Source of the DNA: Candidatus Staskawiczbacteria bacterium
GTDB lineage: Bacteria > Patescibacteriota > Minisyncoccia > Minisyncoccales > Staskawiczbacteraceae
NCBI GenBank assembly: GCA_023245155.1
Contig: JAHFKV010000001.1
Span: 267,034 to 331,033, forward strand
Direction: 5' to 3'
DNA: 64,000 nucleotides
A model generated the notes under the pieces. That model had not been told where the DNA came from. It did not search any database and worked only from the letters and a program-made list of their open reading frames with translations. Position 1 is the first letter of the stretch; every line of letters begins with the position of its first letter. Shown here piece after piece: positions 1 to 26,896 of the stretch. Position numbers and translations under genes: made by a program.

Positions 1-768
1 GTGGTGGATATTGTCCAGGGCAGGCATCCCATTTCAAATGTTTTAAATATTGCCGATAAGGCATCTTACCTTGGAGTTGATGCAGGTGTATATTTGAGTC
101 GTTATGGTAAAAAAGGCCCCGTGGCCTATCCCTCCGACAAAGAAAACCCAATACATAAGATTGTAAAAAATGACCCTAATATTTGCGGTCTATGGGATAG
201 TGTTACTCTGGAGGGCGATAGGGTTGTTATTGAAGATGCTGATCGCCTGGGAAATTTTTTGAAACTTCGTGCCCTAATGTCTCGAGAGCTTTATACTCAT
301 CCGGGAGCCCGGTTTATGGAAGTGTTGATTGGAAAGATAATTATTCCATATCTTATAAAAGAAAAAGTTATTGATCCAGAAAGGCTACTAGAACAAACTG
401 ATGAAGAATTAAATTACATGGTATCTATGGTTATAGATGAACAAGGTGCAATTAATGCTTCTCGGGTTGAAACATTTTTGACTATAGAAGAAGCAAAAGA
501 AGCCCAAGAAAGACTTGCTAGTCAAGGAGTGAAGATATCTTTTATTGAAAATTTGGCCCCGAGAACAACGGGGGGAAGTTACTTTGTTCGGCCCCGCGAT
601 GGGGGTGACCCAGTTGCTTTTGAAAAAGCGTATCCAAGAAAAACTAGCGAGATTAATAAAATTATGAACTCGGCCAATCCATGCCGGCTCTATTACTTGG
701 ATAAAAGTTTTTCCGTCAGCGATGAGCTCCAAAAAGCAATGGAACAGTTTGACAAGATAGATATTTAG
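1..768 (+). CDS. hypothetical protein, 5'-truncated by the window edge (possibly the C-terminal part of an HD/dNTPase-like phosphohydrolase)
   Basis: Frame is open from base 1 to TAG at 766-768 and no start is visible. Family resemblance is weak (LRALMSRELYTHPGARFMEVLIG). Confidence 0.5.
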   Translation: MVDIVQGRHPISNVLNIADKASYLGVDAGVYLSRYGKKGPVAYPSDKENPIHKIVKNDPNICGLWDSVTLEGDRVVIEDADRLGNFLKLRALMSRELYTHPGARFMEVLIGKIIIPYLIKEKVIDPERLLEQTDEELNYMVSMVIDEQGAINASRVETFLTIEEAKEAQERLASQGVKISFIENLAPRTTGGSYFVRPRDGGDPVAFEKAYPRKTSEINKIMNSANPCRLYYLDKSFSVSDELQKAMEQFDKIDI

Positions 769-776
769 ACTATAAT
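749..776 (+). promoter_or_regulatory. sigma70-type promoter TTGACA-N16-TATAAT
   Basis: TTGACA at 749-754, 16-nt spacer, TATAAT at 771-776. It overlaps the stop codon of the upstream gene. Confidence 0.6.
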
Positions 777-782
777 CAAACT

Positions 783-940
783 AACTATGAATCAAACACT
801 TTGCACATCTTGTTTATATTATTATCTAAACCTTCCCAAGAGGACAGTTTTTAGGTTTAGAAATAATGGTGCAAAAAAATAATCCGCATATTAATATTTC
901 AAACTTTAAAACTGGTCTCTTGGGAGACCAGTTTTTGTTC
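783..940 (+). ncRNA. candidate small transcript: sRNA, or near-leaderless mRNA for a 31-aa micro-ORF (787..882, MNQTLCTSCLYYYLNLPKRTVFRFRNNGAKK)
   Basis: Bounded by a consensus promoter and an intrinsic terminator. Nested helices at 800-806/869-875 and 826-833/853-860. No ORF of 60 aa or more. Confidence 0.4.
908..940 (+). terminator. rho-independent terminator
   Basis: Stem ACTGGTCTC (911-919) pairs with GAGACCAGT (924-932), loop TTGG, followed by a T-run. Confidence 0.8.
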
Positions 941-961
941 TTTTAACCATGGGAGAATCGT

Positions 962-1489
962 ATGTGTAAAATGGTTTGTGTTTCGGGTAATGTCGGATCG
1001 GGCAAATCAACTTGTGCGCGCAAGATTGTGCAAAAGGTTGGTGGCTTGGTGTTTGACATCGACGTCGTCAAAAGGGAGCTTGTTGATCCCAGGCTGGTAA
1101 CAAAGCAAGTGGACCCGCCGGAAATAAGATGGCAGTGCTACTTAGAATCTTTCCGGCGCATTCTTCTGCTTTTTGAAGGGGGTGCGTCCACCGTGGTTGT
1201 GGATGAGGTTTTCCACCTACAAGATTTGCGGACTAGGCTGGAAGATTGTTGCATTACGGCTGGGGTCGAAGTTTTCTGGGTCCACATGCAGTGTTCCTAT
1301 GCGCAAGTCGAGAGACGGCTTCAGGCGAGGGCTCGTGAAGGCCACATCTTGTCAACAGCAGAGGCCCTGAAGATGTATTTGCTCTTTGAGGGCATCTTTG
1401 AGCCGTTTCCTGCTGATAAGCCAAACCACATCGTCTACAATAATGACGGAGACGGTGACATTGACGCCCTTGTTTTGGCTCTTGGCTGA
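962..1489 (+). CDS. P-loop NTPase / AAA_33-like kinase
   Basis: Walker A motif GNVGSGKST near the N-terminus; 175 aa; visibly more G+C-rich than its neighbours. Confidence 0.7.
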   Translation: MCKMVCVSGNVGSGKSTCARKIVQKVGGLVFDIDVVKRELVDPRLVTKQVDPPEIRWQCYLESFRRILLLFEGGASTVVVDEVFHLQDLRTRLEDCCITAGVEVFWVHMQCSYAQVERRLQARAREGHILSTAEALKMYLLFEGIFEPFPADKPNHIVYNNDGDGDIDALVLALG

Positions 1490-1569: not shown

Positions 1570-2289
1570 ATGAACAAAAAAAATACATTAAAAAAAATAA
1601 AGGCGCTTGCATTAAATATAGACCACAATATTGCCTTTAAAGGTAAATCAAAGGGGAATAAACACTTGATGAGGGTTGTTCGTGTGGCAGAATTTTTGGC
1701 GCAAAAAACCGGGGCAGACCAATTTATTACCACAGCCGGAGCATTTTTACACGACACGGCGCTACCTTCCGGTAATGATTACAATTATTTGCAAAATAAG
1801 AAAATAGTAAAGCGCTTACTTAAAACATTTCACCTTAATCAAAATGAATTAGACTCCATTGCCGAGTGCGTGGCATCTCACGAGGGTACGGTCAAACCAA
1901 AAACCTTGGAAGCAAAAATTGTTCACGACGCTGATGTTCTTGAAAAGGCGGGATTGTTGGGAATTATCCGTCATACCTGGAAATTGACCAATTCGGGTAA
2001 GATTAACCACAACATGGTAAAAGATGAGGATGTTAAAAAAGTTTTGGATCACATAGTTTGGCGCAGTAAGAGATTGCAGACGCCGATGGCAAAAAAAATA
2101 CAAAAATATGTCACGGTATCCATAGATAGGCGGCGGGCAAAAGTGATAGTTTCATTGACGGCTGGTATGGCGTTTAAGGGCATTATTACCGAAAAAATAG
2201 CTGTAGCGATTCGAAAACATCTTACCAAACAACAAAATAAAAAGCTAAAAGAGCAGCTAAGTCTTAGTTACTTTTCTAGGTTTAAGTAG
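1570..2289 (+). CDS. HD-domain phosphohydrolase
   Basis: H...HD signature (KHLMRVVRVAEF...AFLHDTA) and a second HDADVLEK. I prefer ATG 1570 to the GTG at 1492 because 1492-1569 is an AT-rich spacer. Confidence 0.8.
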   Translation: MNKKNTLKKIKALALNIDHNIAFKGKSKGNKHLMRVVRVAEFLAQKTGADQFITTAGAFLHDTALPSGNDYNYLQNKKIVKRLLKTFHLNQNELDSIAECVASHEGTVKPKTLEAKIVHDADVLEKAGLLGIIRHTWKLTNSGKINHNMVKDEDVKKVLDHIVWRSKRLQTPMAKKIQKYVTVSIDRRRAKVIVSLTAGMAFKGIITEKIAVAIRKHLTKQQNKKLKEQLSLSYFSRFK

Positions 2290-2333: not shown

Positions 2334-2654
2334 ATGGACTTCAATAGTAAAGAAAGTAGACAATTAATCAGCGCCATTTTGACGCTTAAGACCTATGACG
2401 AAACCAAGCGTTTTTTGCGTGATTTAATGACGGAAAAGGAAATTACCGAGTTTACCAAACGTTTCACCGCTGCCCAAATGCTGGCTGAAAAAGTGCCTTA
2501 TTCTGTGATTGAGAAAAAGACCGGTTTAAGTTCCACTACCGTGGCCCGTGTTTCCAAATGGCTGAATGGAAAAGAAGGCGGTTACAAAAAAGCTATTCAA
2601 AAACTGCATCATCATACATTCCATCCAAAAAAGGAGGGGATTGCCTTGATGTAA
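2334..2654 (+). CDS. YerC/YecD-family TrpR-like DNA-binding protein
   Basis: 106 aa. FLRDLMTEKEITEFTKRFTAAQML...KTGLSSTTVARVSKWL matches the Trp-repressor-like YerC family pattern. Confidence 0.85.
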   Translation: MDFNSKESRQLISAILTLKTYDETKRFLRDLMTEKEITEFTKRFTAAQMLAEKVPYSVIEKKTGLSSTTVARVSKWLNGKEGGYKKAIQKLHHHTFHPKKEGIALM

Positions 2655-10388: not shown

Positions 10389-10399
10389 TGTGATATATT
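10371..10399 (+). promoter_or_regulatory. promoter TTGAAA-N17-TATATT (or TGtGATATA) immediately upstream of ATG 10403
   Basis: -35 at 10371-10376, -10 at 10392-10399. Only 3-5 nt separate it from the start codon and there is no SD. Confidence 0.5.
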
Positions 10400-10402
10400 A
10401 TT

Positions 10403-10912
10403 ATGAATAACCCAAGAGAACAATTTAGTCTTATCTACGACCAATATATTAATGCAATATATCGGTTTGTTTATTTGAAGGTAAGTTTGCAAGAAACAGC
10501 TGAAGATATTACCTCTAGGGTTTTTATTAAAGCTTGGCAATCCTATCAAAAAGACGCTCAATCAATCCAGAACATGAACGCTTTTTTGTATAGAATTGCC
10601 GGTAATTTAGTAATTGACCACTATAGGGAAAAAGACAAAAAAAGCACTATTTCCACAGAAAGTTTAGCCCAGCTGGCTGATGATAGGACAAGCATCCATG
10701 AAAGAGCCATGATAAACGCAGATATTGATAAGATGAAAGCGGCTTTAGTTGGGGTGAAAAAAGAATACCAAGACGTGATTATTTGGTATTACTTAGAAGA
10801 TATGTCTGCGGAAGAAATTACATTGCTAACTGGAAAACCGCCTGGAACCGTTCGGGTAATGATTCATCGTGGTCTAGAAATGCTCAGAGAGAAATTGATA
10901 GAGGAAGTCTAA
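10403..10912 (+). CDS. RNA polymerase sigma-70 family, ECF-type sigma factor
   Basis: Region 2 (YRFVYLKV...AEDITSRVFIKAW...LVIDHYR) and region 4 (YYLEDMSAEEITLLTGKPPGTVRVMIHRGL). Confidence 0.9.
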   Translation: MNNPREQFSLIYDQYINAIYRFVYLKVSLQETAEDITSRVFIKAWQSYQKDAQSIQNMNAFLYRIAGNLVIDHYREKDKKSTISTESLAQLADDRTSIHERAMINADIDKMKAALVGVKKEYQDVIIWYYLEDMSAEEITLLTGKPPGTVRVMIHRGLEMLREKLIEEV

Positions 10913-15346: not shown

Positions 15347-15363
15347 GTATAATGTATTATTAT

Positions 15364-26870: not shown

Positions 26871-26896
26871 AGTATAATAATATATTATAAAATAGC

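Follow-up and report, generated by a model that had tools for sequence, protein, structure and literature searches.

We analysed a stretch of 64,000 nucleotides (nt) from a Candidatus Staskawiczbacteria genome, called the window in the following (GCA_023245155.1, contig JAHFKV010000001.1, forward strand 267,034-331,033), and focused on a leader of about 200 bases at 749-948 that lies directly 5' of the gene for an uncharacterised P-loop kinase (Table 1). The gene upstream of this leader codes for 550 amino acids (aa) without a Pfam match; its 3' end reaches the promoter of the leader and its stop codon TAG (766-768) is located inside the promoter spacer. The promoter agrees with the consensus in 12 of 12 positions and is the sole perfect TTGACA-N16-18-TATAAT of the window, for which shuffled sequences give an expectation of 0.05. 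It is followed by a small open reading frame (ORF), by several hairpins and by an intrinsic terminator with a TTTTTGTTCTTTT tail. Between promoter and hairpin the + strand contains only two ORFs, of 31 aa and 26 aa. The kinase gene starts 26 nt 3' of the terminator stem, and this gap includes its Shine-Dalgarno sequence (SD).

Table 1. Features of the leader and of the genes that follow it, with positions in the window.
Feature	Position	Strand	Description
Sigma-70-type promoter	749-776	+	-35 TTGACA (749-754), 16-nt spacer, -10 TATAAT (771-776)
Predicted leader-peptide ORF MNQTLCTSCLYYYLNLPKRTVFRFRNNGAKK	787-882	+	31 codons and stop; near-leaderless; no SD
Protector (anti-antiterminator, 1:2) hairpin	800-875	+	helices 800-806/869-875, 817-823/862-868, 825-833/853-861, 834-836/842-844
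Predicted regulatory codons	817-825	+	three consecutive Tyr (TAT TAT TAT); same place Tyr-rich in relatives
Segment 2, antiterminator 5' strand	833-851	+	core GAGGACAGTTTT (840-851); pairs with 908-926
Middle hairpin H2	853-906	+	853-858/901-906, 860-865/895-900, 869-872/886-889
Intrinsic terminator	908-948	+	stem 908-919/924-935 (12 bp), loop 920-923 (4 nt), U-rich tract 932-948
GTTCTTT box	937-943	+	between terminator and SD; in 38 of 43 leaders
P-loop kinase gene (Pfam AAA_33, 175 aa)	962-1489	+	predicted first regulated gene; SD GGGAGA (951-956)
HD phosphohydrolase gene	1570-2289		after the kinase gene in the window
YerC/YecD TrpR-like gene	2334-2654		TIGR02531, 63.9 bits; after the kinase-HD pair

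An earlier reading of the same sequence, the original prediction, had described the interval as an unannotated mini transcription unit encoding either a small RNA (sRNA) or a near-leaderless microprotein. Its inventory could be reproduced. The consensus promoter overlaps the stop codon of the first gene, the interval is free of ORFs of 60 aa or more, and the 31-aa ORF begins with an ATG 10 nt past the -10 box and lacks an SD. The terminator, given as 911-919/924-932 with a T-run, is present with a longer stem, and both of the proposed nested helices (800-806/869-875 and 826-833/853-860) occur in the minimum free energy (MFE) fold of 783-907. These features are more than a product of chance, as the full leader folds at z = -4.9 compared with shuffled sequences and dozens of distant relatives retain a conserved version of its DNA sequence. 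The proposed comparison with Rfam was also carried out and yielded no family match in 700-1000: a permissive scan of this region gave chance-level matches only (E 0.14-8, far under the gathering scores) and no leader family among them, and the T-box (RF00230) did not match there even at E <= 10. In the whole window no Rfam family reached its gathering score, and a scan for tRNA and transfer-messenger RNA found none.

For the comparative analysis, 76 loci (L001-L076) with relatives of the kinase (41-59% protein identity) were fetched. Since all loci were collected by kinase homology, the occurrence of the motif is judged at kinase loci only. The homologues belong to Patescibacteria, namely Paceibacteria, Parcubacteria, Uhrbacteria, Vogelbacteria, Nomurabacteria and others. 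Around 150 nt 5' of the kinase gene proved to be conserved at the DNA level: the window leader shares 74% identity over 131 nt with L053 and 77% over 116 nt with L075, and the hairpin alone is up to 93-96% identical. With 43 distinct leaders we built a profile that matched about 57 of the 76 loci, once per locus, on the coding strand and directly 5' of the kinase gene, and that had a single match in the entire window (817-940). Thus, the non-coding DNA is better conserved than the adjacent protein, which points to a constrained RNA element tied to the kinase gene. In 5' to 3' direction the family shows a common order of elements: a TTGACA-N16-18-TAnnnT promoter, an ATG, an ORF bearing Tyr codons, a short hairpin right after the Tyr run, AGTTT(T)AAGG, the hairpin H2 of variable length, TTCTCAAA, the terminator hairpin (consensus ACTGGYCTC-N4-GAGRCCAGT, then T's), GTTCTTT, the SD and the kinase start.

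A second helix also makes use of segment 3, the terminator's 5' arm (908-919). Inside the ORF, GAGGCTAG(TTT) at 840-851 is complementary to this arm, and the resulting antiterminator and the terminator are mutually exclusive. Compensatory base changes were found in both helices, which were tested on the MAFFT alignment A2 that had not been fitted to any structure. Across the family, 92.8% of the terminator cells are paired, nine of its 12 pairs carry compensatory changes and none of 500 shuffles was as good; RNAalifold recovered it unaided from the MAFFT alignment, and no other helix. The antiterminator (A2 columns 92-99 with 170-177) is 91.6% paired, shows changes on both sides in five of eight pairs and has 31 double-change cells compared with 10.9 +/- 2.6 in shuffles (0/500), while control helices in slid registers were 24-57% paired. 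Accordingly, altered terminator stems are matched by altered versions of segment 2, for instance CAGCCCTT in L007, L013, L029, L035 and L065, CAGCTTCC in L014, CTGACCTC in the L019 group and CTAACC in L011. Moreover, we compared duplex energies of cognate and non-cognate strands in 5000 permutations. Cognate strands were favoured in the antiterminator (2:3; -13.4 versus -10.3 kcal/mol) and in the terminator (3:4; -17.6 versus -11.8 kcal/mol), with 0/5000 permutations at least as good in each case. The 1:2 helix had -7.0 versus -6.1 kcal/mol (18/5000), and an extended protector, in which the Tyr run and segment 1 face segment 2 and the next 20 nt, had -12.0 versus -10.0 kcal/mol (0/5000). No signal was seen for the negative control 1:3 (-2.7 versus -3.0 kcal/mol; 4453/5000). 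As the terminator 5' arm has a conserved and co-varying alternative partner, the terminator appears to be conditional and the unit to be a regulatory leader of the downstream operon.

The rows of the MAFFT alignment show the protector and H2 in differing registers. Therefore, these two hairpins were assessed by folds of the individual sequences and by duplex energies instead of column counts. In the local MFE folds of 40 out of 43 leaders, segment 2 is paired with the bases that directly follow the Tyr run. A hairpin with the shape of H2 (AGG.G.CGAAAU...AUUUCG.C.CUU) and a variable loop recurs in the relatives but is weak. In the window, the protector is the MFE structure of the RNA up to 907 (-21.1 kcal/mol), and its 5' strand includes the Tyr codons and the next 14 nt. 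H2 forms in the antiterminator state, and its 5' strand is paired with segment 1 in the protector state. The complete terminator state, which comprises protector and terminator, was calculated at -38.3 kcal/mol. The antiterminator state, in which 833-842/917-926 and 845-851/908-914 enclose H2, is the MFE structure at -40.3 kcal/mol. When the footprint of a stalled ribosome with a Tyr codon in its A site was masked, the antiterminator fold was obtained once 908-923 existed.

The conserved feature of the ORF is its run of Tyr codons, which had gone unremarked in the original prediction. Leader ORFs of the relatives have 16-42 codons with two to five, mostly consecutive, Tyr codons. The family runs contain 116 Tyr codons (100 TAT and 16 TAC). 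No other residue is as common in the leader peptides as Tyr, which reaches 13.2% there and a background of 3.7% in the window's long ORFs. When each frame was tested for an ATG further upstream that is not cut off by a stop, the Tyr frame had one in 37 of 38 leaders, and the other frames in two leaders and one leader. The same frame test ruled out a reading of the repeat as Leu codons (TTA/CTA) in another frame, in which a change from TAT to TAC would be synonymous as well. In 29 of 38 relatives the leader ORF follows a TTGACA-N16-18-TAnnnT promoter, and likewise 29 of 38 leaders have a promoter-proximal start with the ATG 4-22 nt past the -10 box. Judged by the predicted starts, the spacing is that of a leaderless mRNA (6-7 nt) in 13 of 38 leaders and 10-21 nt in others. 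In the window we place the transcription start at about 783-784, which would leave the ORF with a predicted 5' untranslated region of about 3-4 nt. According to the frame test, the leader ORF is very probably translated.

The peptide beyond the Tyr run is not conserved, since its length, stop and C-terminus drift; even between close relatives (L019 and L034; L012 and L050) the stop codon is shifted by point changes or 1-nt indels. A weak likeness of the N-termini (..N-F/L-N/K-F/L-K/L-S..YYY) was noticed among some peptides. The CxxC pair and the basic tail, which had been mentioned as features of the ORF, are absent from the peptides of the relatives and look incidental. It had also been proposed to compare the conservation of the helices with that of the reading frame. 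Here the terminator and the antiterminator co-vary and the frame stays open, but the peptide tail is not maintained. Conservation that is limited to the Tyr codons and to the part doubling as a helix, together with a drifting tail, is expected of a leader peptide and not of a functional microprotein. Besides, 14 nt separate the end of the last Tyr codon from segment 2 in the window, which is also the modal spacing of the family, and a similar spacing between regulatory codons and segment 2 is found in trpL of E. coli. With this distance a stalled ribosome would cover segment 1 and not segment 2.

To characterise the downstream genes, the neighbouring ORFs of all loci were clustered and the clusters were searched with Pfam and NCBIfam. 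The kinase gene is almost always followed by a phosphatase gene, and often the next gene encodes a tyrosyl-tRNA synthetase (TIGR00234, 370.8 bits compared with a cut-off of 113.8). Some loci also have a prephenate dehydrogenase or dehydratase gene (tyrA/pheA) downstream. Co-directional tyrS genes lie downstream in nine leader-bearing loci, and many other contigs are too short to tell.

We consider it likely that the leader is a ribosome-mediated transcription attenuator of the trp/phe leader-peptide type, which would sense charged tRNA-Tyr and control read-through into the kinase operon. The analysis shows the elements themselves and how far they are conserved, two alternative helices that both co-vary, an open reading frame, the spacing and the genes of the operon. 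From these we infer that the ORF is translated, that ribosomes stall on it, in which order the RNA folds during transcription and that the switch responds to tyrosine. The leader agrees with the attenuator type in all of its defining features that were open to testing here: the codons of a single amino acid are clustered, a terminator precedes the first gene, pairing 2:3 excludes pairing 3:4, one strand of 1:2 lies within the footprint of the stalled ribosome and the operon is tied to the cognate amino acid in the relatives. With respect to the original prediction, the promoter, the small near-leaderless ORF, the helices and the terminator do form one functional unit, which is not the stand-alone sRNA or microprotein gene that had been assumed. 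Most likely the strong terminator acts conditionally, the nested helices correspond to the protector and the microprotein to a leader peptide.

According to this attenuator model, RNA synthesis would begin about 3-4 nt 5' of the ATG (787), and translation of the 31-codon leader by a ribosome would set in. If Tyr-tRNA is plentiful, or if no ribosome is loaded, 817-836 would pair with 842-868 and form the protector hairpin. Segment 2 (840-851) would then be sequestered, 908-935 would fold as the terminator once it has emerged, and the RNA polymerase would halt in the U tract at about 936-948. If Tyr-tRNA is scarce, the ribosome would stall with a Tyr codon in its A site. Its footprint would cover about 14 nt past the Tyr codons, which is the 5' strand of the protector, and segment 2 would remain free just outside. 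H2 could then fold and bring segment 2 beside 908-919, so that the antiterminator would form before the 3' arm of the terminator is made and transcription would proceed into the kinase gene. In the relatives, such read-through would also reach the genes for the phosphatase, tyrS and tyrA/pheA.

Several observations weigh against this model. The globally most stable fold of the window leader is the antiterminator, also when the stop codon is occupied by a ribosome. As the antiterminator is thermodynamically slightly favoured, termination by default would rest on the kinetics of co-transcriptional folding. The inner protector is weak in several members of the family, with local z-scores that average -1.5, and about 19 of the 76 kinase loci have no leader. 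The stop codon lies at -2 to +43 nt relative to segment 2, and therefore the step in which the ribosome covers segment 2 would not be identical in all members. Some members have two Tyr codons only or a run of Tyr codons that is interrupted. It is also an assumption that leaderless ORFs are translated in these uncultured bacteria. Moreover, the operon of the window consists of the kinase gene, probably the HD phosphohydrolase gene and a separately promoted YerC-like gene, and a tblastn search of the window for homologues of tyrS, tyrA and the phosphatases of the low-molecular-weight (LMW) phosphotyrosine, inositol monophosphatase (IMPase) and PP2C families found none. Since neither tyrS nor tyrA is present within the 64 kb, the link to tyrosine rests on the relatives.

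Other explanations of the same features were weighed. A stand-alone unit, that is a trans-acting sRNA or a functional 31-aa microprotein with a constitutive terminator to which the kinase gene is adjacent by coincidence, is very improbable. It would account for the perfect promoter and the strong terminator, for the stable fold of the RNA and for the conserved position of the ORF. Such a unit does not explain the strict linkage to the kinase gene in one orientation with one copy per locus, the 26 nt including the SD leave no space for a separate kinase promoter, and a co-varying antiterminator that overlaps the terminator would be senseless if termination were constitutive. A microprotein is further contradicted by the lack of conservation of peptide length, stop position, C-terminus and CxxC pair, and an sRNA by the lack of an Rfam sRNA match. 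Trans roles of a terminated attenuator RNA and of a leader peptide are reported for rnTrpL/peTrpL of Sinorhizobium (PMC7968998, PMC7298713). By analogy, the terminated RNA of an attenuator in the window may have a secondary role in trans.

A factor-dependent attenuator for which the ORF is irrelevant is improbable as well. The factor could be a ligand recognised by an aptamer (riboswitch), an uncharged tRNA (T-box-like) or a protein that binds the UAU repeats or two similar hairpins. Alternative terminator and antiterminator folds are common to all such mechanisms, and the sequence of hairpin H1 and AGUUU resembles that of the terminator and AGUUUU in the manner of a repeated site; the shape of H2 is also conserved with no sensing role assigned to it. 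No credible Rfam match was obtained even at E <= 10, however, with the T-box and the known riboswitches included, and the alternative helices and Tyr codons account for nearly all conserved nucleotides, so that no aptamer-like core is left. The UAU/UAC triplets stand in frame with a promoter-spaced ATG in 37 of 38 leaders and the other frames are closed, for which a protein or ligand site offers no reason. They are contiguous, unlike the spaced triplet sites that are bound by TRAP. Alternatively, the Tyr-rich peptide itself could be the substrate or precursor of the adjacent kinase and phosphatase, by Tyr phosphorylation or in a manner resembling ribosomally synthesised and post-translationally modified peptides (RiPPs), with RNA structures that tune stoichiometry. 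The Tyr cluster in every peptide, the weak N-terminal similarity among some of them and the phosphatase that almost always comes after the kinase, in 19 loci an LMW phosphotyrosine phosphatase, would agree with this explanation, but the fold of the kinase is that of P-loop kinases of small molecules or nucleotides and not that of protein kinases or RiPP kinases. As length and tail of the peptide are unconstrained, as the operons also hold tyrS and tyrA, which suggests a link to tyrosine supply, and as the peptide would not need a co-varying antiterminator for such a role, we regard this explanation as very improbable.

Leader-peptide attenuators are known from Proteobacteria and Actinobacteria, where trpL, pheL, hisL, leuL, thrL and ilvL as well as pheM-pheST of E. 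coli belong to this type. Attenuators located before aminoacyl-tRNA synthetase genes have been described for trpS and leuS in Streptomyces, and for tyrosine the same study named T-boxes and not attenuators (PMC1262725). The leader of the window resembles the classical attenuators, and among them most closely those of synthetase genes, in its short ORF with clustered codons, its helices 1:2, 2:3 and 3:4 and its terminator before the first gene. Furthermore, the codons are placed such that a stalled ribosome would open 1:2, and the operon is tied to an amino acid including its tRNA synthetase. However, neither sequence nor covariance models reveal similarity to the leader families of Rfam (Trp_leader, Phe_leader, His_leader, Leu_leader, Thr_leader). 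Other differences are that tyrosine would be sensed, that the hosts are Patescibacteria, that the ORF is predicted to be leaderless or near-leaderless, that the additional hairpin H2 is inserted between segments 2 and 3 and that the first gene encodes an uncharacterised kinase.

The nearest precedent for a leaderless sensory ORF is given by the polycysteine attenuators of mycobacteria, in which stalling in a codon run of a leaderless small ORF (sORF) remodels the mRNA and induces Cys-related genes of the operon (Canestrari et al., bioRxiv 10.1101/834739). Like the sORFs of this 'Cys ribulon', the leader ORF would be the leaderless first cistron, judged here by predicted starts, and carries a run of codons for a single amino acid. 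In contrast, the mycobacterial sORFs act on translation (bioRxiv 10.1101/834739), whereas a terminator with a co-varying antiterminator indicates control of transcription in our case; amino acid, phylum and sequences are all different. A functional parallel exists to the tyrS T-boxes of Firmicutes, where a shortage of charged tRNA-Tyr also switches a terminator to an antiterminator before tyrS. T-boxes, however, read the uncharged tRNA by means of a specifier codon and the T-box sequence and without translation, and the leader described here has an in-frame Tyr run. In open-access papers and preprints, our search turned up neither a tyrosine leader peptide nor an attenuator of any kind in Patescibacteria, which are also called candidate phyla radiation (CPR). 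Thus, the mechanism is a textbook one, and the Tyr-sensing family, which is widespread in these ultra-small bacteria, appears to be undescribed.

To our knowledge, gene regulation in Patescibacteria is almost unknown, although they represent a large and mostly uncultured share of bacterial diversity. If the attenuator model is true, minimal cells sense the charging of one tRNA by classical coupling of transcription and translation, and do so via a leaderless ORF. Tyrosine would then join the amino acids that are sensed by leader-peptide attenuation, and the family would be a candidate for inclusion in Rfam and in annotation pipelines. The surprise would be moderate because the mechanism itself belongs to the textbooks. 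The model would also provide a functional clue for the kinase-phosphatase pair, which would be induced at a shortage of Tyr-tRNA and co-transcribed with tyrS and tyrA.

The identity of the kinase was addressed with Pfam, NCBIfam, a PDB sequence search, AlphaFold and Foldseek, which assigned a generic P-loop kinase fold and nothing more specific. The AlphaFold model has a predicted local distance difference test score of 86.9, and its nearest structures in Foldseek are gluconate kinase, the kinase domain of PFK-2, APS kinase, adenylate kinase and PSTK. The best sequence match in the PDB is a Ser-tRNA(Sec) kinase, and a comparison with anti-phage defence families gave no match for the kinase. 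The phosphatase that follows comes from one of four unrelated families, namely HD (28 loci), LMW phosphotyrosine phosphatase (19 loci), inositol-monophosphatase-like (four loci) and PP2C/SpoIIE-like (three loci). This non-orthologous replacement suggests a conserved kinase/phosphatase cycle that is linked to tyrosine. It is conceivable, though we put it forward with considerable doubt, that the leader marks an unrecognised tyrosine-starvation module of Patescibacteria, which would consist of the uncharacterised P-loop kinase and an interchangeable phosphatase (HD, LMW phosphotyrosine phosphatase, IMPase-like or PP2C-like). If the substrate of this pair is tyrosine itself, a tyrosine precursor, or tRNA-Tyr or its synthetase, this would represent new biochemistry in bacteria that are presumed to scavenge amino acids, for example a cycle of storage and salvage of O-phosphotyrosine. 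In that case the attenuator would be the handle that makes the module testable.

The loci without the leader, about 19 in total, include L005, L023, L024, L002, L004, L015 and L028. In several of them the kinase gene is part of a longer operon behind a gene for prephenate dehydrogenase/dehydratase or tyrosyl-tRNA synthetase, and in L002 a tRNA gene precedes the kinase gene.

In the window, the stop codon of the kinase gene is followed by a GC-rich hairpin of 9 bp (1503-1511/1526-1534, 14-nt loop) and then by TTTCTTTG, as seen in the sequence only. A TATAAT at 1558-1563 ends 6 nt short of the ATG at 1570, with which the HD gene begins. In this genome, that gene may therefore have a leaderless start of its own and be partly uncoupled from the attenuator. 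The YerC-like gene has its own promoter-like site as well (TTGACA-N17-TAAAGT with a TG extension, 2299-2327), and its presence at this position is not conserved in related loci. A TrpR-like regulator beside a presumably tyrosine-controlled operon may not be a coincidence.

The GTTCTTT box stands about 15-30 nt before the SD, even in leaders that have an extra hairpin after the terminator (L001, L010, L036, L039, L055), where it keeps its place near the SD and not its place at the terminator. Pairing of the box with the SD (AAGGAG or GGGAGA), with G-U pairs allowed, is part of the local MFE fold in 19 of 38 leaders, which is a raw count with no control for chance. As a hint only, the box may serve as an anti-SD and add a second, translational layer of control.

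The motif TATTATTAT occurs in seven copies in the window compared with an expectation of 0.9. The six copies outside the leader lie inside long ORFs or in AT-rich promoter-proximal DNA, and none of them shows the architecture of the leader. Three of these copies (10396-10404, 15355-15363 and 26874-26882, - strand) are situated in AT-rich DNA, with a TATAAT-like box on one side and a start codon at a distance of a few nt on the other. Such an arrangement suggests that leaderless mRNAs, or mRNAs with a very short leader, are common in this genome.

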